A stretch of DNA of 64,000 bases from assembly GCA_938005315.1 (NCBI GenBank), contig CALLOB010000005.1:19413-83412 (forward strand), read 5' to 3'. Source of the DNA: an uncultured Phycisphaerae bacterium. Lineage in GTDB: Bacteria > Planctomycetota > Phycisphaerae > UBA1845 > PWPN01. Each line of letters opens with the position of its first letter. Position 1 is the first letter of the stretch. A model generated the notes under the pieces. That model did not search any database. It had not been told where the DNA came from and saw nothing but the letters and a program-made list of their open reading frames with translations. Below are positions 1,412 to 58,037 of the stretch, one piece after another. Position numbers and translations under genes: made by a program.

Positions 1412-2334
1412 CCCCGGCCCCCCATCGGACGTTCAGGCCGGGCCTCGCCGTCCGATAAAGAAACGATTCGTCCGCATTTTGGCCCGTGCGTCCCGGAGAC
1501 CGGGTCGGACCGGGCACCCCCGTCGCGTGCGGCCGGGCCTCGATGGGCGTGCGTTCCCCGGTCCTGCCGGGGGATGCCGGCGGCATCCAACTGCGTCGAT
1601 CATAAATGATCCTATCGACCCGGTTCAACCCCAGTCGCGCATTTCACGTTGGAACATGGGCTTACGTCCTGTCGCGGTTACGGCGAGGTCGAGTCGCTGG
1701 CGGGGCGCATCCGCGTTAGGGGTCGGTCGTCCGGGGTCTCCCGGAGGCCGAAAAACGCCGTGGTCTGTCTGCGTCGAGGGCTCGGTCGGGACCTCGGCGG
1801 TCCGCCCGCTCCCGCAGGGTTCTTCGCCTGAATCCCAGACCTGCTTTGCCGGTCCGTCCGGCGAAGGATTCATTCCCCGGCGGCCCTGCCCGGCCCCGAG
1901 CGTTACCGGGCCCTTTCAAACCGGGTCAAAACTGGTTTTTTCTGGTCTTTGAGACTTGAATCCGTCCGCGCGATACGATAAAGTACAGGAGGTGCAATTC
2001 GGCGGACTGCAAGTCGGCAGAGGAGGAGAGGTGGTCCGCACCGTGCGTCCGCAACGAGGAGGATGAGTATCCGTGGGCTTTGCCCGGGCTTCCCGGCGGC
2101 GTCTGACGGCCCAGGATCCCATTCGGGGTGGAATCGTCGGCAAAAGATGAGGCGCGATGGCCGGTCATGGGTTCCACACGCAGTGCGTGGTGTGTTCCCG
2201 GCGTGCCGAGGCGCTTGAACGAGTCGCACAATAACCAGTCGCACAAGCCACCGCCGGTCGCCTGGTCGACCGATGGACAGTCAGTGAGGTCGGAGTCGTT
2301 TGTGGTGTTCTTCTTGACGCGAAAGGAGCGGGTC

Positions 2335-4671
2335 ATGGTGAAAAGGTCTCATCGTAAGGCCGGATCGGCGAGCAGGGTCGTCGGCGTGTCCGTGGTACTT
2401 GCACTGGCCGGGCAGGCCGTGGCGGCCGAGCTTCTGGTCACCAGCCGCCTGACCAACCAGGTGCTCGAGTTCGACGCCTCCACAGGGGCGTTCGTCGGCA
2501 TCTTCGCCGGCGCCGGAAAGGACGGTAGCGGGCTGCAGGATCCCCGCGGCATCCTGCTGGGTTCCGACGGCAACATCTACGTGGCCAGCTATGCCACCGA
2601 CAGCGTGAAAAAGTACAGCGCCACCGGAACCTACATCGGCGACTTCGTCACCGCCGGCAGCGGCGGCCTGGACGGCCCGGACGGCATGACCTGGGGCCCG
2701 GACGGCAACCTGTACGTCAGCAGCAACCTGAACCACCGCGTTTTGCGGTACCAGGGGCCCGGCGGGGCCTCGCCCGGGGCGTTCATCGACACCTTCGTCA
2801 CCGCCGGAAGCGGCGGACTGAACCAGCCCAGGGGCCTGATGTTCGGCAACGATCAGTTCTCGCCCGGTCCGGTGATCCCCGGCCCGGCCCAGGACGGCTA
2901 TCCCGAGCTGCTGGTCTGCAGCTGGGGCAGCGGCAAGATCCTGCGGTACAACGGCCAGGCCACCCCGAGCCTGGCCGCCGGCGCGTTCCTGGACGTCTAC
3001 GCCGACGCCGCCAATGTTCAGCACCTGATCTTCGAGCGGTTCGTCGAGGACAGCTGGCGCTACGACCGGATCGTCAACGGCAACATCCTGGCTTCGCTGG
3101 ACGCCGGCAACCTGATCGGCATCTACAGCGGCACCTACTCCAAGGCCGAGCACTTCATCGCCACCGGCATGGATACCAACTTCTACGGGCCTTTCTACGT
3201 CGAGCAGCTGTCCTCGCCGCGCGGTTTGGCCTGGGGTCCGGACCGCGGTAGCAACGGCAATGTGGGGTCCAGCTACCGCGACGGCTTCAATGACCTGGCC
3301 ATCGCCAACTATATCTGGGACAACATCCGCGTGGCCGGGGCCGACGAATCCGACCTCGGCATTCTCGTGGCTGCCAAGGCCGGCGGCCTGGACGGACCGA
3401 GCTACCTGCTGTTCAAGTGCGGCGACAAGACGCCGACGCTGGTCCGCAGGGTGGTCAACAACAATGCCCTCCTGGGGAGCACGCATACTCTCCGCCTGCA
3501 GGGCGACAACCTCGCCAGCATCACCGCCGTCCGGCTGCGCAAGATGCGCGACAGCGGTTCGCTGGCCAGCGACGGCACCGGCCGGATCGACGGCTTCAAC
3601 CTCCGCATGGACGGCAACGACGTGCTGGTGGACTTCAACCTGACCGTCAACTATCAGGGCAACCCCGTGGAGTGCGGCCGATACATGGTCCAGCCGTTCG
3701 ACTCCTGCGGCATCAGCAACTGGATGCCCGACACCGTCCTGGTCTACGCCCCCGAGCTGCTGAACACCAGCTTCGAGGAAGGGTATGTGGTCGATCCCCG
3801 GGAGGCCAACAATGTCTGCGAAAACCCCAGCCAATGGGACCCCAACGGCGGCGGCAACAAAACCAAGCCCAAGCACTGGGACGTGCGGAAGTACGGCTGG
3901 CAGACTCAGCTCGACATCAAGCGGGACGGCAACGTGTGGCATCCCTGCACCAGCCCCACCGGCCCCGGCAGCTACGCCGAGGGCATGACCGGCGATCACT
4001 ACGGCAGCATCCACTGCAACATCTCCAACGACGACGAGGCGGTGATGTGGCAGACCATCGCGGCCCCCGACGTCAGCACCAAGCCCTACCGTGTGTATGT
4101 CGATGCCCACATGGCCAGCTTCGAGCGGCTCAGCTACGGCTACATCCGGCTGATCGACGGCATCGACAGGATCGGGGCCGGGGTGGTCATTGCCGAAACG
4201 CAGATCCCCAACACGCAGACCATCGACGACAACGCCATCGTCCGCAGTCCGGACTTCGTGGCCACGGTGCCCCAGGGCTACGTGTTCCAGTCGGATCCGC
4301 CGCTGCTGACGGTGATGTTCGTGCTCAAGTCGGTGACCGGCGACGTATGCCCGGCGGGCTCTCCCGACTGCGGCTATCCCACGGTCGATCTGGCGCTCAA
4401 GGGTCTGCACCTGGACGCGGTCCGCAACACGTTCCAGCCCTGCCCGAACAGCCCGTGGGCGGATACCGACAACGATGACGATGTCGACAGCGACGACTTC
4501 GCCTTCTTCCAGCGCTGCCTGACGGTGGGCGACAACCAGCCGATGGACCCCGCCTGCCAGTGCCTGGACCGCAACGGCGACAACCTGATCGACATCGAGA
4601 ACGACTTCGTCCAGTTCCAGCTGTGCGGAACCGGACCGGGCGTGACCACTGTCGCTCCGGGTTGCGAATAA
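2335..4671 (+). CDS. Large secreted NHL-repeat (beta-propeller) protein with two C-terminal dockerin/EF-hand-like repeats
   Basis: This is the frame of ORF 2128..4671. I place the start at ATG 2335, preceded by gaaaGGAGcgggtc, which gives MVKRSHRKAGSASRVVGVSVVLALAGQAVAA. NHL-like repeats are present (GILLGSDGNIYVASYATDSVKKY, GMTWGPDGNLYVSSNLNHRVLRY). The C-terminus is DTDNDDDVDSDDFAFFQRCLT...DRNGDNLIDIENDFVQFQLCGTGPG. Confidence 0.75.
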   Translation: MVKRSHRKAGSASRVVGVSVVLALAGQAVAAELLVTSRLTNQVLEFDASTGAFVGIFAGAGKDGSGLQDPRGILLGSDGNIYVASYATDSVKKYSATGTYIGDFVTAGSGGLDGPDGMTWGPDGNLYVSSNLNHRVLRYQGPGGASPGAFIDTFVTAGSGGLNQPRGLMFGNDQFSPGPVIPGPAQDGYPELLVCSWGSGKILRYNGQATPSLAAGAFLDVYADAANVQHLIFERFVEDSWRYDRIVNGNILASLDAGNLIGIYSGTYSKAEHFIATGMDTNFYGPFYVEQLSSPRGLAWGPDRGSNGNVGSSYRDGFNDLAIANYIWDNIRVAGADESDLGILVAAKAGGLDGPSYLLFKCGDKTPTLVRRVVNNNALLGSTHTLRLQGDNLASITAVRLRKMRDSGSLASDGTGRIDGFNLRMDGNDVLVDFNLTVNYQGNPVECGRYMVQPFDSCGISNWMPDTVLVYAPELLNTSFEEGYVVDPREANNVCENPSQWDPNGGGNKTKPKHWDVRKYGWQTQLDIKRDGNVWHPCTSPTGPGSYAEGMTGDHYGSIHCNISNDDEAVMWQTIAAPDVSTKPYRVYVDAHMASFERLSYGYIRLIDGIDRIGAGVVIAETQIPNTQTIDDNAIVRSPDFVATVPQGYVFQSDPPLLTVMFVLKSVTGDVCPAGSPDCGYPTVDLALKGLHLDAVRNTFQPCPNSPWADTDNDDDVDSDDFAFFQRCLTVGDNQPMDPACQCLDRNGDNLIDIENDFVQFQLCGTGPGVTTVAPGCE

Positions 4672-32336: not shown

Positions 32337-32410
32337 GGGCGTTTAGCTCAGTTGGCTAGAGCGTACGGATCACACCCGTAAGGTCACTGGTTCGAGTCCA
32401 GTAACGCCCA
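32337..32410 (+). tRNA. tRNA-Val (anticodon CAC)
   Basis: I folded the cloverleaf by hand. Acceptor GGGCGTT/AACGCCC; D stem GCTC/GAGC; anticodon stem TACGG/CCGTA; loop AT-CAC-AC; variable loop AGGTC; T arm ACTGG-TTCGAGT-CCAGT; discriminator A. No CCA is encoded. 74 nt. Confidence 0.9.
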
Positions 32411-35800: not shown

Positions 35801-36549
35801 AGCCCATAGGCGGTCAGCAGGGCGTTGTCGCAGATCTGGTTGATCACCCGCGGTATGCCCGCCGACGCCCGGAAGATCCGGGCCAGGGCGTGCGGCGTGA
35901 AGACCTCCGTCTCCGGCGGACAGCCGGCGACCGCCATGCGGCTGCGGACGTACTCGGCGGTCTGCTCGGCGGTCAGGGCCCGCAGGTGGAAACGCCGGAA
36001 AAGCCGCTGGTTGAGCTGTCTCATGTCCGACCGTGCGAAACGGTCGCGGAGCTCGGGCTGCCCGAGGATGCAGATCTGGAGGAGCTTGGCGTCGTCGGCC
36101 TCGAGATTGCCCAGCATCCGCAGCATCTCGAAGCTCTCGTCGGGCAGGTCCTGGGCCTCGTCGAGCACCACCACCACCAGCCGGTCGGCGGCGAACTCGC
36201 GGAGCAGGTACTGCTGGAGCGTCTCCACCAGTTGCAGATTGCTGCTCTCGGGCGGGCAGGGAAGGTTGAACTCGGCGCAGATCGCCGCCAGCAGCTGTCG
36301 GGCGGACAGCTGGTTCTGGGTGATGACCGCCACGCTGCCCAGCGGTTCGATCTGGCGGGCGAACATCCGGGCGACAAGCGTCTTGCCGGACCCCACCTCG
36401 CCGGTAATCAGCACGAATCCCTTGCGCTGCTGGCAGGCGTACTGCAGGGTGGCCAGGGCCTCTTCGTGGTCCGGGGTCCGGTAATAGAAGGTCGGATCCG
36501 GGGTGTTGTTGAACGGCGGCCGGTGCAGGCCGAAGTGAGCGCAGTACAT
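32881..36549 (-). CDS. ExeA-like AAA ATPase (PEP-CTERM-locus secretion-ATPase type) fused to a ~950-aa coiled-coil region
   Basis: ORF track, 1222 aa. The N-terminus is MYCAHFGLHRPPFNNTPDPTFYYRTPDHEEALATLQYA. Walker A is GEVGSGKT and Walker B is VVVVLDEAQ. GIPRVINQICDNALL is ExeA/GspA-like. From ~aa 290 onward the sequence is E/R/Q/A/L-rich and heptad-like to the C-terminus. RBS is GGAGAgcgatcc-ATG. No TM segment is visible. Confidence 0.8.
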   Translation of the reverse strand: MYCAHFGLHRPPFNNTPDPTFYYRTPDHEEALATLQYACQQRKGFVLITGEVGSGKTLVARMFARQIEPLGSVAVITQNQLSARQLLAAICAEFNLPCPPESSNLQLVETLQQYLLREFAADRLVVVVLDEAQDLPDESFEMLRMLGNLEADDAKLLQICILGQPELRDRFARSDMRQLNQRLFRRFHLRALTAEQTAEYVRSRMAVAGCPPETEVFTPHALARIFRASAGIPRVINQICDNALLTAYGLDSRIVDNVILDQVLEAEEQAAAPTPEQTQARIEAIYGVRPEVVQVSERVEQEAGVEGGVPKVSTLPDLEPQAIHRRIERALEIIESSAAGLQARLGRERPRREEIEEIVDQVASRWNAARSELGICREDLHAIIDETMARCRAAEQQIERVDRSGSSAEALDEIRRLHQQGTAELLERIARQREEFQRLFEQNEQHWIETRQRVAGLAREAVSAETLEELESQLEKRIEEAVGQLEAYQAQVAELVPLIQRQCEDTEARIASLALNQERQDRDMERLSEELAQQRCDQTARTETLERLGKELAQQQRDQAAQAETLERLGSRVAGCEAAGQALARDIGERLEAVAASVAALREQTPSLHDLEHVRNEQERALGELENRLAQQALELADMRRQVDARAAELSGEQRRAFEELAQRIVDEACELSGLRQRLVRQHADIREQLSVLAEEFARREDLEAAREQQDAQRRELDERLTAEIAAGRQDARRRLDELEALCRAAQEEIDRLSRTAQAGGQELAGLVARQRQDVEGLLEELQGIRRSMDERLNGALSRWERTQEQLEALRERAADRVAVEALRARQARDAEEVRTAVSESRAQLESLVASFSERFEALVAARKSELEEAIRQVNGRCDQTGAALQALEARAASNEDVAELRRRHDQHVRALLARLQETRRRHEERLGDLGARWQTLRDSVEQLANSSTPVATFRAAQESITQALEGLKSRLGEIGGRQASDAQTFVEVIETLTQRIRLLEERERPRPVKIQLAPQAAARLGRLNEQALAQADRLETLIEQAQAVGTQLEDSARRVTEALAGWSENADAVRAQAEQLKTSARSSAGILKALQRCNDAVHDSLRQAEERQQEWAQRLARVEAVARRRLEEQSRQSRAQLDALVGHAEGVAEELRQLVDRGSEAGSAVKELLAAIARSAADMAGRPPARKIGAADAEESTGRGPVVPVRWPELRTHGLAAAKAG
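34841..34980 (-). repeat. 63-nt (21-aa) tandem duplication inside the coiled-coil ORF
   Basis: The units at 34841-34903 and 34904-34966 differ at ~7 of 63 positions by my hand alignment, and a partial third unit follows. The protein units are EELAQQRCDQTARTETLERLG and KELAQQQRDQAAQAETLERLG. Confidence 0.8.
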
Positions 36550-36800
36550 GGATCGCTCTCCTGGGAGCCCGGCGGCCCCGGGTTATCGGACATCCTCCCG
36601 GGTCGACCGGCTCAGCGCGTTCTATCGGACCTGCCCGGAGCCGGCTTGAGGTCGGCGGGAGGGTCCGCAAAAAAAACGGAGATAAGTCACCACCGCCCCA
36701 TCGGGTGCCGATAGTCCCATCACCGAGGGACCGGAGACCGGCGTCGGCCGGATCGGGACCCGGCCCTGCGGGCGGACACGGACGAGCCTTCGCGTCAGGG

Positions 36801-37631
36801 ATGACGACGATGCGATACACCTCCTTGAGACGCTGGCGGAATCCGGCGCTGACGGCGCTGTGCGGACTGGCCGCCGCCGCGTCGGCCGGGTGCGCCAACA
36901 AGTACGACGACATGAAGGTCTTCATGCGGGCCCACGAGAACGAGGTCGCGGGCACGATCTACCGCCTGGAGCCCCCGGACGTGATCGTGATCAACTCGCC
37001 GACCTGCCCGGAGGTGGACAACGAGGTCCAGCGCATCCGGGCCGACGGCAAGATCTCCCTGGACCTGCTGGGCGAGGTCTACGTGGCCGGCATGAGCCCG
37101 GCCGAGATCGCGGCCAAGCTCCAGGAGCAGCTCGCCCGCTACTACGAGAACCCCCGCGTCGATGTGCGCGTGGCCGCCTACGAGAGCAAGAGCGTCTACG
37201 TATTCGGGCAGGTCGCCGTGCCCGGACCGCATCCCTTCACCGGCCGCGACACGCTGATGGACGTGCTGGCGCGGGCCCGACCGACCTTCATCGCCTGGGG
37301 GGCGCAGGTCAAGGTCATCCGTCCCAGCGCCCGTCCCGACGAACGCCGCGAGATCACCGTGGACGTCGACAGGATCGTCGAGACCGGCGACATGCGCGAC
37401 AACCTGCTCCTGCAGGAGGGCGATATCGTCTACGTCCCGCCGACCCCGCTGGGATGGGTCGGGCTGCGGGTCAACGAGGTGCTGTTCCCGGTCTCGCCGA
37501 TGCTGTCGGCCTACCAGATGCCGTACCACTTCCGGGACTCGACCGACCACTACCGTTACGGGTCGTACTACCACTACAAGCATGACGATGACGACAACAA
37601 AGGGGGATACCGGAGGCTGCTGTTCAGGTAG
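36801..37631 (+). CDS. Polysaccharide export (OPX, Wza-like) lipoprotein
   Basis: The lipobox is AAAASAGCA. The Poly_export-like part has YRLEPPDVIVI...IRADGKISLDLLGEVYVAGMSPAEIAAKLQEQL. The SLBB-like part has VYVFGQVAVPGPHPF...LQEGDIVYVP. The C-terminal tail is unusually Tyr/His-rich. Confidence 0.8.
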   Translation: MTTMRYTSLRRWRNPALTALCGLAAAASAGCANKYDDMKVFMRAHENEVAGTIYRLEPPDVIVINSPTCPEVDNEVQRIRADGKISLDLLGEVYVAGMSPAEIAAKLQEQLARYYENPRVDVRVAAYESKSVYVFGQVAVPGPHPFTGRDTLMDVLARARPTFIAWGAQVKVIRPSARPDERREITVDVDRIVETGDMRDNLLLQEGDIVYVPPTPLGWVGLRVNEVLFPVSPMLSAYQMPYHFRDSTDHYRYGSYYHYKHDDDDNKGGYRRLLFR

Positions 37632-46059: not shown

Positions 46060-46264
46060 GGCCCGGCATCCGATAACCGCGCAGGCCCCATAATCGCCAC
46101 GAGGGCCGGGACGCCGCGGATTCTTTATGGGGCCGAACTCGCCCGGGCCCTTCCGCCTGCCGACATAACCATCAGCCGCGGACGGCTGGCGGACGGGCCG
46201 CCGCGCGCCGGTCGGCGTGCGCCCGCCGGTCGCCGCCGGCGCCGCGGCATGGAGTCTTCGAAAG

Positions 46265-53679: not shown

Positions 53680-54735
53680 ATGGCGGAAGCCGGATTGACA
53701 GGCTGCTGTTCGCCCCGGATCGCCGGCGGCCAGCGTTCATCCGCCCGGCGGTCGCCGGCCTGCGCATGCTGCGGCGCGCACGACAGCCGCCCGTTGTGGC
53801 CCCGGCACGCCGGGACCGGTCGCCTGACACTTCCGCTGCACCGTTGCCGGAGATGCGGCCTGATCTTCGCCTGGCCGCAACCGGACGCTCAGGAGATCCG
53901 CGGCTTCTACGACGCCGACTACTACGTCTTCCACGAGCCGCCCGCCAAACGCTGGGGGCGGGCCGCGCAGCTTTACATCGAATACCTTCTGCCGCTGGAG
54001 TCGCGCGGCGGCCGCCGCCTTCTGGAGGTCGGTTGTGCTCAGGGCGAACTGCTGGTTCTGGCCCGGCGGCGCGGGTGGAACGTCGTCGGTATAGAACTCT
54101 CTTCCCCGGCGGCCGAATATGCCCGCCGGCAATGGGATTTGAACGTCCGCACCGGCACGATCGAGCAACACGCGGCCGACGTGCCCCCCTGCGACCTGGC
54201 TGTCGCGACCGATGTCATCGAGCATGTGCCGGAGCCGCGACGTTTTCTTGGGAGCATGGCTTCAGCCCTCGGGCCCGGCGGACTCGTACTGCTGGAAACA
54301 CCGAACTGGGACAGCCCATGGCGAAGGCTTGGCGGCCGACACTGGATCGGCCTGAATCCCTTCCACATCTTCCTGTACGGCACCCGCAGCCTGACCACGC
54401 TGGCCCGGCAGTGCGGCCTGGAAAACGTCGAGATGCGCAGCGTCACCCATTTCGCCCATGCGCTGTGGGGCCATCGGCCCGAACTGGACTGTCTGGTGCG
54501 GCGACTGCCCGAGAGCCTCGCATGGCGGGTGCGGGCGGGTCTGGATCGCCTGACTCCCCCCTCCCGGTCGCGGGCTTTGTGCCTGGACCCGCCGGACTCC
54601 TGCGACTCCGCTCTGGCACGGATCGAGGCCGCCGCCCGAAACGGCGCGGCTCCGAAGAAACAGGGCGTCTTCCATCCCTGGCGAACCTCCCTGGGCGACA
54701 ATCTGGCCCTGCTGGCGCGGCGCCAAGACCGATAA
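53680..54735 (+). CDS. Class I SAM-dependent methyltransferase with N-terminal Cys-rich (zinc-ribbon-like) segment
   Basis: The Cys-rich part is CACCGAHD...HRCRRCGLIF. The methyltransferase part has RLLEVGCAQGELLVLARRRGWNVVGIELS, DLAVATDVIEHVPEP and LGPGGLVLLETP. Confidence 0.7.
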   Translation: MAEAGLTGCCSPRIAGGQRSSARRSPACACCGAHDSRPLWPRHAGTGRLTLPLHRCRRCGLIFAWPQPDAQEIRGFYDADYYVFHEPPAKRWGRAAQLYIEYLLPLESRGGRRLLEVGCAQGELLVLARRRGWNVVGIELSSPAAEYARRQWDLNVRTGTIEQHAADVPPCDLAVATDVIEHVPEPRRFLGSMASALGPGGLVLLETPNWDSPWRRLGGRHWIGLNPFHIFLYGTRSLTTLARQCGLENVEMRSVTHFAHALWGHRPELDCLVRRLPESLAWRVRAGLDRLTPPSRSRALCLDPPDSCDSALARIEAAARNGAAPKKQGVFHPWRTSLGDNLALLARRQDR

Positions 54736-54799
54736 TATCGCCCGCCGGGCCCACGCAAACGCCGATCAGGCCTATTGGACGCGGTTGCGGCCGATATTC

Positions 54800-54852
54800 C
54801 TCAACTTTTCTGCGGACCGACCGATATCCCAATCGAGAGCGGTTATCGGAGT
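54800..54852 (+). promoter_or_regulatory. Three-block conserved intergenic element, copy A
   Basis: The element is CTCAACTT-N10-CGACCGATATCC-N12-GTTATCGG-AGT. The same blocks at the same spacing recur at 56561-56614. It ends 41 nt upstream of ATG 54893. Confidence 0.5.
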
Positions 54853-54892
54853 TCCCGCTCGCGGGCGCTGCCCGATACCCGAGGTCGATGCG

Positions 54893-56404
54893 ATGCCGGC
54901 CGGCTCAACGATGATCAAGGGAGCCCGCCCGGCGGCGGACGACCGGGCGTATCGGGAAGCCTTGGAACGCTGGCGGCGATGGCTCGATCACGAGCCCGAG
55001 CTGCCGGGAGCCGATCGCCGCGGGGCCGCCCCGCCGAGGCGCGTCCTGCTGATCAGCTACATGTTCCCGCCCGCGGGCGGAGCCACCCTGCAGCGGCCGG
55101 CCAGGCTCGCCGCGTACCTGCCGACCTGCGGGTGGTCGGTCGAAGTCGTCACCGCGAACCATGAGCGGTTCGCCTGGTACGACGCCACGATGGAGGACAG
55201 CGCCGGCAGCGGCGTTCACCGCGTCAGCGGCTGGGAACCCGCGTGCCTGGCAGGTCGCATCGCTTCGTTGTTCCGGTTGCATACGGGAACGGATGCCCGT
55301 CACCATGCACGAGTTGAGGTCGGTCGACAGGGACGTCGACCGACCTCACGCTTTGAAGACGCCCTCTACTGGCGCCTGACCGCCCTGGCCGAGCGGCTCG
55401 GCGCAGGCGACGGCAGCAGCCTCTGGCAAGGTCCGGCTTTTCGCGCCGCTCTCCGGCTTCACCGCGCATGCCCGTTCGACGCCGTGGTCTCCACCGGCCC
55501 GCCGCACTTCGTGCACCGCATCGCCGCACGCCTGACCGCCGTCGCCGGCCTGCCCTGGCTGGCCGATCTGCGCGATCCGCTGATCAGCGACTTCGACCGG
55601 GGATGCGTCGGTCATCAGCCGGATTCCGCGTCTGCGAAACTGGAACGCATGATCCTGCGGCAGGCCCGTATCGTCGTGACCACCTGTCCGGCGCTGCGCG
55701 AGGATCTGCTGAGCCGCTACCCCGACAGGTCCCGCGACAGCATCCGGTGTGTGACCAACGGCTTCGATCGTCGTGACCTGCATCCGCTTCTGAGGGATCC
55801 CGCGTTCACGTCGCCCAGGACAGACCACTGCATTCTGGCGTGCGCGGGATCGCTATACGGCCGCCGCGAGCTGTCGCGCATCGTCGAGCCGCTGGCCGGC
55901 GTGCTTTCGGCCCGGCCCGACTGGGCGGCAAAGGTCCGACTCGTGGTGGCCGGCACGATCGACCGCGAACAGCGCCGATTCTGGCAGCAGTGCGCTCCTG
56001 AATGGCTGACCTTCGCCGGATATCTCGATCACCGGCAGGCACTGGCACTGGCAGCCGGTGCGGCCTGCAATCTCGTCATCGTCCCGGACTGCGCGCACGG
56101 CCGGATGAGCATACCGGGCAAGACCTTCGAGCTGCTGGCCCTGCCGCCGCACATCCTGGGCATGGTTCCGCCGGAAAGCGACACCGCCCGCATCCTGCGG
56201 CGGGCCGGCAACGCTACCGTGGTGCCGTTCGAGGATGCCGGGGCGGTCCGGGCCGCCTTCGAGCGCATCATCGCCGCGCACCTGGCGGGACGGCTCATTC
56301 CGGACCGCAACTGGCAGGCCGTCGAGCCCTACGACCGCCGTCGCATCGCCCGGCGGTTCGCCGCCTGCCTTTCTGCGGCAGTCCAGTGCCACTGCGGAAG
56401 CTGA
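54893..56404 (+). CDS. Glycosyltransferase (GT4-like)
   Basis: Starts MPAGSTMIKG. Contains RVLLISYMFPPAGGATLQRPARLAAYLPTCGWSVEVVT and GKTFELLALPPHILG. The start is ATG 54893 after GAGGtcgatgcg. Confidence 0.6.
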   Translation: MPAGSTMIKGARPAADDRAYREALERWRRWLDHEPELPGADRRGAAPPRRVLLISYMFPPAGGATLQRPARLAAYLPTCGWSVEVVTANHERFAWYDATMEDSAGSGVHRVSGWEPACLAGRIASLFRLHTGTDARHHARVEVGRQGRRPTSRFEDALYWRLTALAERLGAGDGSSLWQGPAFRAALRLHRACPFDAVVSTGPPHFVHRIAARLTAVAGLPWLADLRDPLISDFDRGCVGHQPDSASAKLERMILRQARIVVTTCPALREDLLSRYPDRSRDSIRCVTNGFDRRDLHPLLRDPAFTSPRTDHCILACAGSLYGRRELSRIVEPLAGVLSARPDWAAKVRLVVAGTIDREQRRFWQQCAPEWLTFAGYLDHRQALALAAGAACNLVIVPDCAHGRMSIPGKTFELLALPPHILGMVPPESDTARILRRAGNATVVPFEDAGAVRAAFERIIAAHLAGRLIPDRNWQAVEPYDRRRIARRFAACLSAAVQCHCGS

Positions 56405-56560
56405 GTCCGCCGTGTATCCCTTGCCGGAAGAACCGCCGGCGGCCGCAGGTCGGCAGGCGTGGACACGTCCGATAATCAGGCGGTTCTCAGGCCTCCGGCG
56501 GGCTGGGCATTTCCCTGGCTGGCGGGATCTGCCGGGGGCGGCCGGAATGACCGGGGGGAC

Positions 56561-56614
56561 CTCAACTTATCCTGCCAGCGACCGATATCCACCATAGCGA
56601 CTGTTATCGGGAGT
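56561..56614 (+). promoter_or_regulatory. Three-block conserved intergenic element, copy B
   Basis: The element is CTCAACTT-N10-CGACCGATATCC-N12-GTTATCGG-GAGT. It lies 170 nt upstream of ATG 56784, inside a 379-nt gap. Confidence 0.5.
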
Positions 56615-56783
56615 GCTTGTGCGGCAATGGGTTAGCGCGCAAGCCACCCGCCCGGAAGGATCCGAACGAACGTTCGCCAGGGATGGCGTCATGCCCCCGC
56701 CGATTCGCGCGGCGCAAGCACGCCCGGACTTCCCGGCGACAAGCAGCCCGGCTGTTGCCCGGGGATTGCGTGAAAGGCCCGCA

Positions 56784-58037
56784 ATGAGCCGCCCCATCGC
56801 CAGACCCTTCTTCGTCAGCGACGCGCCGCATTTTGGCGGGGCCGAGCGCTACATCGTGGCGATGTGCGCGGCGGCGCGCCGTCGGGGTTTGTCGCCGGGG
56901 ATCCTGTGGATCGACCGGGGCATCGCCGGTGAAGCGGTGATGGAGCGGCTGCGACAAGAGGGCGCGCCGGTGAAGGTTCTTGATGGGCGGCGAGGCGCCG
57001 GCACCGGACTGGTGCGCGGTTTTCTTTCGGCCCTCGATGAGACCGGGGCGGATGCACTGATCTTCAACGCCTGTGGACGGGCGGGATTCTGGCTGTTGCC
57101 GTGGGCGGCGCGGTGCAGAGGACTGCCGGCCGTATGGGTGCATCAGATGGTTGATGCCCGCGATCACCGCCGACTGCCGGCACGGTGGTGGAACGGCCGG
57201 ATGGAGGGCCTGCAGACCTGGCGTGTGCCGCAGGCTGTGCGGCACACGCTGGCCATGGCCGCCTGCCGGGCGGCGGTGACGCTGAACGAGGCCGACGGCG
57301 AGCGCATCGTCCGCTGGCTGCGGGCGCCGCGCGACCGGCTGCATGTCGTTCCGCACGGCGTGGACTGCACGGAGTACCGCTACGATGCCGCCGCGGGGAT
57401 GCGGCTTCGTGCCGCGCTGAAGCTGCCGCCGCCGGGGGCCGGGCCATTCGTGGTCGGCACCGCCGGCCGGCTGGTTCGCGGCAAGGGTGTGGACCTGCTG
57501 ATCCGTGCGGCCGCGCTTTTGAAGGATCGCGGCCTGGACGTGGAAGTGCTGGTGGCCGGCGACGGCGAGGCCAAAACCGAGCTGGCGGAGCTGGCGGCGG
57601 GGTTGGGCGTGGCGGGCCGGGTGCATTTCGCCGGTTTCATGGAGGACATGCCGGCCTTCTACAGCGCCCTGGACGCCTTCGCGCTGTGCAGCCTCACCGA
57701 GTCGTTCGGCCTGGCGATCGCCGAGGCCATGGCCTGCTGCCGGCCGGTGATCGCGACGCCCACGGCCGGGGCCTTGCGTCAGATCGAGCACGGCGTGAAC
57801 GGCCTGCTATTGCCGGGTTTCGACGCCGGCGCCCTGGCCGAGGCGATTGCGCGGCTGGCGGGCGATTCCCGCGCTGCCGCGCGCCTGGGCGAGGCCGGGC
57901 GCCGCAGCGTACTGCAACACTACAGCATCGACCTCACGCTCGAGCGGACGCTGCGAGCCTTGCGCGGCCGGGCCCGGGCCTGCAGCTGTCCGGTCGATCC
58001 GCCGCAGGTCGTCGCGGTCGGGGAGGAGCGAGCATGA
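56784..58037 (+). CDS. GT4-family glycosyltransferase
   Basis: Starts MSRPIARPFFVSDAPHFGGAERY. Contains GRLVRGKGVDLLI and SLTESFGLAIAEAMACCRPVIAT. The ORF-track N-terminal extension (56613) is trimmed. Confidence 0.8.
   Translation: MSRPIARPFFVSDAPHFGGAERYIVAMCAAARRRGLSPGILWIDRGIAGEAVMERLRQEGAPVKVLDGRRGAGTGLVRGFLSALDETGADALIFNACGRAGFWLLPWAARCRGLPAVWVHQMVDARDHRRLPARWWNGRMEGLQTWRVPQAVRHTLAMAACRAAVTLNEADGERIVRWLRAPRDRLHVVPHGVDCTEYRYDAAAGMRLRAALKLPPPGAGPFVVGTAGRLVRGKGVDLLIRAAALLKDRGLDVEVLVAGDGEAKTELAELAAGLGVAGRVHFAGFMEDMPAFYSALDAFALCSLTESFGLAIAEAMACCRPVIATPTAGALRQIEHGVNGLLLPGFDAGALAEAIARLAGDSRAAARLGEAGRRSVLQHYSIDLTLERTLRALRGRARACSCPVDPPQVVAVGEERA

Follow-up and report, generated by a model that had tools for sequence, protein, structure and literature searches.

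The 64-kb stretch of DNA analyzed here (hereafter the window), from contig CALLOB010000005.1 of an uncultured Phycisphaerae bacterium, has a G+C content of 70% and carries a co-directional polysaccharide cluster that extends from about 36.5 kb to the window end, as judged by Pfam scans of the open reading frames (ORFs) in the window. The export genes of this cluster encode a Wza-like exporter, a GNVR chain-length protein, and an AAA_31 kinase-like protein, and its enzymes include several GT4 and GT2 glycosyltransferases, methyltransferases, and a polysaccharide deacetylase; two AsnB-like amidotransferases, a Wzy_C polymerase/ligase, and a divergent AAA_22 ATPase are also encoded. Two of its non-coding gaps hold the subject of this study, a short three-block DNA element that is present in two copies. 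Copy A lies within the 157 nt that separate a methyltransferase gene (53680-54735) from a GT4-like glycosyltransferase gene (54893-56404, plus strand, 503 aa, Pfam Glyco_transf_4), and copy B lies within the 379 nt that separate the latter from the next GT4 gene (glycosyltransferase group 1, 56784-58037, plus strand, Pfam Glycos_transf_1, 1e-37). A preliminary description of this DNA had stated that each copy precedes a glycosyltransferase (GT) gene, and both gene starts are supported: the start at 54893 by a GAGG Shine-Dalgarno sequence (54881-54884) and by an M1 that is invariant in a 16-sequence alignment, and the start at 56784 by the register of its Pfam domain, in which Glyco_transf_4 begins at residue 17.

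Searched with up to 3 mismatches allowed, the three-block pattern CTCAACTT-N10-CGACCGATATCC-N12-GTTATCGG matched the window only at 54800-54849 and 56561-56610, in both cases on the plus strand with 0 mismatches, and none of 100 dinucleotide-preserving shuffles contained a match. The arrangement of three blocks at identical offsets that was first described is therefore real and far beyond chance. In copy A, block 1 (54800-54807) contains the -35-like element CTCAACT as an exact match (54800-54806, plus strand), block 2 (54818-54829) contains the extended -10-like element GACCGATAT (54819-54827, plus strand), and block 3 is an inverted CCGATAA box (54842-54850, minus strand) that reads TCCGATAAC on the minus strand and GTTATCGGA on the plus strand. 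The corresponding features of copy B are block 1 at 56561-56568 (CTCAACT at 56561-56567, plus strand), block 2 at 56579-56590 (GACCGATAT at 56580-56588, plus strand), and the inverted box at 56603-56611, which reads CCCGATAAC on the minus strand. The other details of the preliminary description were mostly reproduced: a (G)AGT tail directly follows each copy, blocks 2 and 3 contain an inverted repeat, CCGATATCC...(G/T)GTTATCGG, with an 11-nt spacer in both copies, and the spacers between the blocks are unlike, with 3/10 and 1/12 identical positions (4/22 in total), so that the likeness of the two copies is confined to the blocks. The distance from CAACTT to GATATC, which had been given as 17 nt, is actually 15 nt; a distance of 17 nt requires CTCAAC as the first hexamer.

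Orthologous clusters were obtained by exact-protein look-up and by a protein-profile scan of metagenome contigs. The 503-aa GT has 70 close homologs in metagenome-assembled genomes (MAGs) of Phycisphaerae and Planctomycetes, the best of them 80% identical and the others at most 55% identical. About 20 distinct lineages share blocks 1 and 2, with the consensus CTCAACT-N12-GACCGATAT and an invariant 12-nt separation, always on the coding strand and always in non-coding gaps (loci L001, L004, L005, L015, L016, L017, L018, L020, L022, L025, L026, L027, L030, L031, L032, L035, L038, and L051). One to three copies are found per orthologous cluster, and the gene downstream is the GT ortholog, the next GT4 gene, or an AsnB-like gene. 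Instances that precede the GT ortholog, like copy A, occur in L001, L004, L015, L016/L026, L017, L027, and L038; instances between the GT ortholog and the next GT4 gene, like copy B, occur in L005, L018, L025, L027, L030, L031, L032, and L035; and instances that precede an AsnB-like gene have the variant -35 sequence CTCAGAT or CTCAGCC (L005:7914, L018:5457, L031:1833, L035:3855, and L051:2677). Matches to an nhmmer profile had E-values of 2e-5 to 6e-9, and such a profile, built from 23 cores and run against about 1 Mb of loci and the window, returned no more diverged copies beyond those already known. The recurrence of the same blocks at the same spacing before orthologous genes in many genomes indicates selection and agrees with the preliminary view of a functional, promoter-like signal rather than a recent duplication. 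The methyltransferase and GT of some relatives form a single fusion protein of 762-783 aa (P0049 and P0050), which leaves no gap corresponding to that of copy A.

A strict pattern scan of 185,579 species genomes gave 8 matches. Two of these were in Planctomycetes MAGs (one each, both in the same cluster type), and the remaining six, from unrelated taxa such as Mesorhizobium and Corynebacterium, appear to be due to chance or to coding sequence, about 9 matches being expected by our own estimate. Because the pattern was found in only two Planctomycetes MAGs and in the same cluster type, the element is not a dispersed repeat, and a dispersed repeat or mobile element was rejected as an explanation for two copies in 64 kb that both sit before genes. 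The chance matches at L007, L011, and L013 (Mesorhizobium and Caulobacteraceae) share a longer stretch, CGACTCAACTG[CT]GTAACCGAGCGACCGATATCCCGTTC, which probably reflects conserved coding sequence of a common gene and is unrelated to the element. As to the origin of the two copies, the promoter regions before and after the GT ortholog in L027 are about 85% identical over about 150 nt (L027:1-130 and L027:1700-1850; also L031:7440-7600), and the A and B promoter regions are thus paralogous. This likeness points to a duplication or gene conversion of the whole regulatory region, and in the lineage of the window the functional blocks alone have outlasted the divergence of the two regions.

For an interpretation of blocks 1 and 2, 25 instances, picked by no more than 2-3 mismatches to the core, were aligned on that core, which yielded the logo aC-CTCAACT-N12-GACCGATAT. 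The -10 octamer ACCGATAT (element positions 21-28) is present in both window copies and in 25/25 instances, and it is identical at 7/8 positions to the -10 of the Bacillus subtilis sigD consensus TAAA-N15-GCCGATAT (PMC5200910) and at 6/8 positions to GCCGATAA in the sigma-28 promoter consensus TAAAGTTT-N11-GCCGATAA (PMC4866697), with an identical -10 core of CCGATA(T/A), a word characteristic of promoters of the sigma-28 family. Setting ACCGATAT at -15 to -8, the positions of GCCGATAA in the Pseudomonas aeruginosa fliC promoter (-36 TCTAAAG -30, -15 GCCGATAA -8, from the open complex solved by cryo-electron microscopy; PMC12784957), places CTCAACT at -35 to -29, where it aligns to CTAAAGT, and element position 36 at +1. 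The agreement of the -35 is partial: in this register CTCAACT shares five of the seven bases of CTAAAGT (C, T, A, A, and T), TCAA shares 3/4 with TAAA, and TCA is a variant accepted for WhiG, the actinobacterial -35 of which is XT(C/A)AX (PMC13595943); a WhiG-type T(C/A)A was found in 22/25 instances (variants: TTAA in 3 and TCAG in 5). The spacing TCAA-N15-ACCGATAT was kept in 25/25 instances with no length variation, as in the sigD consensus, and the distance from the -35 T2 to the first base of the -10 octamer (A21) was 19 nt in all 25, the same as in TAAAGTTT-N11-G.

Within the -35 block, C1, T2, and A4 were invariant and T7 was found in 24/25 instances, and GACCGATAT was invariant in 25/25, all of these being positions that were used for selection. 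Among the positions outside the selection, an A at position 17 (-19) and a pyrimidine at position 12 (-24) were each found in 25/25 instances, and a purine at position 36, the predicted +1, was found in 23/25. The conserved -10 block is 9-10 nt long, which fits a sigma factor with domain 3 (extended -10) and not an extracytoplasmic function (ECF) sigma factor. The register predicts transcription starts on the plus strand at 54835-54836 for copy A (element position 36) and at 56596-56597 for copy B (with an A at 56596), which would give a 5' untranslated region (5'UTR) of 58 nt for the gene at 54893 and of about 188 nt for the gene at 56784, each counted to the ATG. In six lineages, the 5'UTR predicted for the GT ortholog has a length of 58-63 nt. 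Like known sigma-28 promoters, the element precedes start codons by 58-220 nt and is on the coding strand. Predictions for 54500-57000 returned neither a sigma-70-like promoter nor an intrinsic terminator.

Taken together, these observations suggest that blocks 1 and 2 of each copy are probably an internal promoter of the exopolysaccharide cluster for a group-3 sigma factor of the sigma-28 family (FliA/SigD/WhiG), a family for which non-flagellar regulons have precedent (WhiG in sporulation and Chlamydia late genes). The element would most likely be a known type of signal in an unusual place, i.e., a flagellar-type promoter before exopolysaccharide glycosyltransferase genes. CTCAACT would act as the -35 in place of CTAAAGT, and GACCGATAT would act as the extended -10 in place of GCCGATAA/T; transcription would then begin about 8 nt past the -10, near 54835 and 56596, producing mRNAs whose first genes are the GT gene (54893) and the GT4 gene (56784), respectively, and expression of the glycosyltransferase sub-operons would depend on the availability of a sigma-28-family factor. 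The identity of the sigma factor is inferred from sequence resemblance.

Several points weigh against this assignment. The core positions served to select the instances, and the invariance of the core is therefore partly circular. The -35 is imperfect, as CTCAACT matches only 4-5 of the 7 consensus positions, with C for A at -33 and C for G at -30, and the base at -15 is an A instead of a G; the element also differs from known sigma-28 promoters by the invariant G before that A and by the extra invariant A at -19. An ECF-type reading, TCAAC-N16-CGATAT, fits the spacing equally well, and the element is flanked by extra -10-like CCGATAA boxes, one of them inverted just past the predicted start, which are outside a simple promoter model. 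Here the promoter would serve glycosyltransferase genes for an exopolysaccharide instead of genes for flagella or chemotaxis. Neither a sigma-28 gene nor a flagellar one was found in the window or the fetched loci, either by Pfam scans of 38 window ORFs or by tblastn of Phycisphaerae loci with FliA, FliC, and Hag queries; a consensus flagellin query for Phycisphaerae returned Firmicutes-like proteins only. In addition, the motif is absent from the orthologous clusters L028/L029 and L033.

A few further sites of similar appearance were seen outside the two gaps. The divergent gap at 36550-36810, between the AAA_22 ATPase gene (minus strand, start at 36549) and the Wza-like exporter gene, contains three CCGATA boxes. 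CTCAAGC-N13-GTCCGATAG on its minus strand (36655 to about 36620) has a spacer 1 nt longer and is a weaker candidate for a sigma-28-like promoter, and TCCGATAAC at 36589-36581 stands 32 nt before the ATPase start codon. At 1433-1460, in the gap upstream of an 854-aa ORF (2107-4671; weak DUF4934 match only), TCAG-N14-TCCGATAAA may be another sigma-28-like site, in this case beyond the polysaccharide cluster. Distant GT4 loci of other taxa (about 29% identity; L073/L074:5922-5952 and L090:8336) carry TCAA-N15/16-(G/T)(A/C)CGATA(T/A) just upstream of a glycosyltransferase gene, and these could be independent sigma-28-like promoters or chance matches.

The CCGATAA boxes around blocks 1 and 2 are real and conserved. 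In six orthologous loci, 21 CCGATA[AT] words were observed in 5.0 kb of intergenic DNA vs 0.8 expected from composition (26-fold), and 20 were observed vs 11.5 expected in 99.5 kb of coding DNA. The octamer CCGATAAT, which was overlooked in the preliminary description, occurs only twice in the 64-kb window, at 54729 (71 nt upstream of block 1 of copy A) and at 56469 (92 nt upstream of block 1 of copy B). The upstream box of copy A, ACCGATAAT (54728-54736, plus strand), overlaps the TAA stop codon of the methyltransferase gene, and that of copy B is TCCGATAAT (56468-56476, plus strand). An upstream box is found in most orthologous lineages at 78-81 nt before block 1, and it persists there in coding and non-coding positions alike. 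Still other boxes adjoin block 1 or are located about 30 nt more upstream. Copy A has an extra box, GCCGATATT (54790-54798, plus strand), abutting block 1, which is not conserved in L001, and (C)GATA(N)C boxes adjoin block 1 in several orthologs. Another extra box of copy A, CCCGATACC (54871-54879, plus strand), stands just before the Shine-Dalgarno GAGG, and L001 has CCGATATCC at the same place; this box can pair with block 3 in the predicted 5'UTR, with a fold z-score of only -0.5. Block 3 itself, the inverted box, would span about +8 to +15 of the transcript; it has counterparts in 13 orthologous promoters, with a CCGATA-TATCGG separation of 17-21 bases, and it is absent from most copy-B-type and all AsnB-type orthologous promoters. 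When CCGATAAT, ATTATCGG, CCGATAAC, and GTTATCGG were sought in the literature, the sole use found was that of CCGATAAT as the FliA -10 consensus.

Three other readings of the boxes were tried and rejected. The upstream CCGATAAT box has no conserved -35 at the N15 position and was not retained as a second sigma-28 promoter; block 3 has no minus-strand -35 at the right distance and was not retained as an antisense sigma-28 promoter (the start predicted from block 3 as a minus-strand -10 in the window would be the same base as the sense start); and a likeness of GATAAT and TTATC to Fur or DnaA boxes was dropped because the boxes are isolated single words and not the arrays those proteins need. 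Block 3 and the upstream CCGATAAT box repeat the -10-like word, and our best guess is that they would modulate the promoter, either by binding the same holoenzyme non-productively or by binding a regulator that competes with it at the -10. As with the FleQ boxes that flank the pel promoter of Pseudomonas, conserved boxes stand here on either side of the predicted start of an exopolysaccharide promoter, upstream and a short way downstream of it; this is an analogy only, as the box here is CCGATAA and not the FleQ consensus, and no such regulator was identified here. Solitary boxes also occur elsewhere in the cluster: TCCGATAAC at 46069-46077, with no -35, stands before the methyltransferase gene that opens the ABC-transporter part, and similar CCGATAAC boxes are found before the orthologous methyltransferase at L005:1002 and 1148.

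The preliminary description had already pointed to an ECF promoter, and while its idea of an alternative-sigma promoter is supported, the ECF family appears weaker than the sigma-28 family. An ECF sigma factor would recognize TCAAC (-35) and CGAT(AT) (-10) at a distance of 16 nt and would switch on the GT genes in response to an envelope signal. The element does share two short blocks at fixed spacing with ECF promoters such as those of RpoE/AlgU (GAACTT-N16-17-TCTGA) and ECF37, its AAC-N16-CGAT spacing is ECF-like, and the listed ECF37 consensus, GTCAAC / CGTTAT, agrees with TCAAC / CGATAT at 5/6 and 5/6 positions. ECF sigma factors are abundant in Planctomycetes, and RpoE/AlgU-type promoters, whose GAACTT resembles CAACTT, control alginate, which is also a polysaccharide. 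However, the AAC of the -35 is kept in 20/25 instances and replaced in 5/25 (CTCAGAT and CTCAGCC) while CT.A stays invariant, and the -10 has CGA in all 25 instances and never CGT, so that the AAC/CGT pair of ECF promoters is not found even though the spacing would fit; the RpoE/AlgU -10 (TCTGA/TCAAA) is likewise not at the right distance in the window sequence. The conservation that includes this CGA spans 9-10 nt (GACCGATAT plus the A at -19), longer than expected for a sigma factor without domain 3. ECF regulons are also usually local and auto-regulated, but the nearby sigma/anti-sigma pair that the preliminary description had suggested looking for was found neither in the window nor in about 15 orthologous clusters, of which up to 21 kb was covered: the Pfam scans and the gene tables of orthologous loci contained no Sigma70_r2/r4 family, and tblastn with RpoE and SigW queries found none in Phycisphaerae loci, although such a gene may lie farther away. 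We thus consider the sigma-28 family more likely than the ECF family, and an ECF promoter, while the main rival, unlikely. Slightly less probable still is an operator array without promoter function, in which a regulator binds the CCGATA(A/T) words and represses or activates a promoter elsewhere in the gap. The clustering of CCGATA[AT] boxes in regulatory gaps (3-6 per gap, in both orientations), their intergenic enrichment, the fixed position of the upstream box without its own -35 in most lineages, and the solitary boxes in other cluster gaps (36581-36589 and 46069-46077 in the window; L005:1002 and 1148; L016:3712) speak for such an array, but it leaves unexplained a non-palindromic block 1 at an invariant 12 nt from the core and the purine at +1. 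The variable spacing of the inverted pair and an optional block 3 are unlike a rigid dimer site, the gaps contain no other promoter-like signal, and no regulator gene is conserved in the clusters. An operator array can also coexist with the sigma-28 promoter, and it would then explain the accessory boxes alone.

Two explanations that concern the inverted boxes are far less probable. Long polysaccharide operons of other phyla carry RfaH/ops, EAR, LoaP, and UpxY signals, and it is very unlikely, though conceivable, that the element is a cis-acting RNA or elongation signal of a long operon, be it a hairpin of blocks 2 and 3 or an antitermination signal like ops/JUMPStart or EAR. As with those leader signals, a short conserved element lies here in the non-coding gaps of a co-directional cluster, the predicted leader contains block 3, whose distance from the promoter varies, and blocks 2 and 3 can form a 6-8-bp stem, whose seventh pair shows one possible compensatory C-G to U-A change in three closely related sequences (inherited once). 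The hairpin was nevertheless rejected. If block 2 is the -10 element, it would be outside the transcript from the same promoter, and the fold z-scores were -0.5 and -0.7, not better than shuffles. The six core pairs of blocks 2 and 3 never vary and hence provide no covariation; in the tally over 8 pairs, 4 show no variation and one shows a single inherited double change. On the whole-structure measures, 186/500 shuffles did as well in the percentage of paired cells and 154/500 in the covariation score. Several orthologous copies have no block 3, and the single changes of block 3 in L027a and L030 are uncompensated. The earlier suggestion that blocks 2 and 3 form a hairpin or a dimer site therefore finds little support, with an optional block 3, a 17-21-nt spacing, no covariation, and folding that equals that of shuffles. 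The elements have no likeness in sequence or structure to the known leader signals and no Rfam match at the gathering threshold (whole window) or at E<=1 on 54650-56850, the sole Rfam match in the window being a tRNA gene at 32337-32410 (67 bits). No NusG paralog was found nearby by the Pfam scans of window ORFs or by tblastn, the latter with limited sensitivity; blocks 1 and 2, the best conserved, behave like a -35 and a -10 and not like RNA, and an RNA signal gives block 1 no role. Least probable of all is a phase-variable invertible promoter, in which a 121-142-bp segment carrying the promoter would be bounded by 7-8-bp inverted repeats, namely block 3 and the upstream CCGATAAT box, as in fimS and the capsule invertons of Bacteroides. 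Surface polysaccharide loci are typical targets of phase variation, and the two boxes are indeed inverted copies of one word that flank the promoter, but the promoter points toward the gene in all instances from >20 independent assemblies, and an inverton is unlikely because no assembly shows the opposite orientation. Moreover, the repeats would be very short for an inverton, several promoters have no block 3, and Pfam scans found no recombinase gene in the window or the loci.

At about +20 to +45, many of the predicted leaders contain a short hairpin rich in G and C, either CCCGC..GCGGG or GCGCGC..GCGCGC. Its sequence is lineage-specific (e.g., 54855-54866 in the window, L017:9960-9985, L027:1825-1850, L030:3900-3925, and L032:7590-7615), and it could be a 5' stabilizing stem-loop.

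To our knowledge, almost nothing is known about the promoters and sigma-factor regulons of Planctomycetota, notably of uncultured Phycisphaerae, and a conserved, searchable sigma-28-like promoter would offer a testable handle on the regulation of surface polysaccharides in Phycisphaerae. The promoter logo obtained here is lineage-specific and may be used for regulon prediction in MAGs, and the accessory CCGATAA boxes could reveal a new way to tune an alternative-sigma promoter. Elsewhere, sigma-28-family factors are tied to motility and to the cell-cycle or developmental state, and the element hints at a coupling of such states with polysaccharide production. We tentatively hypothesize, as a possibility that we still regard as doubtful, that in this Phycisphaerae lineage a sigma-28-family factor, of the kind that normally turns on late flagellar genes, has been recruited for surface exopolysaccharide synthesis, with a promoter architecture that includes decoy or competitor boxes. 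If so, the inverted box, face-to-face with the sense start, and the other box, fixed at about -110, would be sigma decoys or sites for a competing regulator, and the production of a holdfast- or capsule-like polysaccharide would be tied to the motile/sessile cell cycle of these bacteria.

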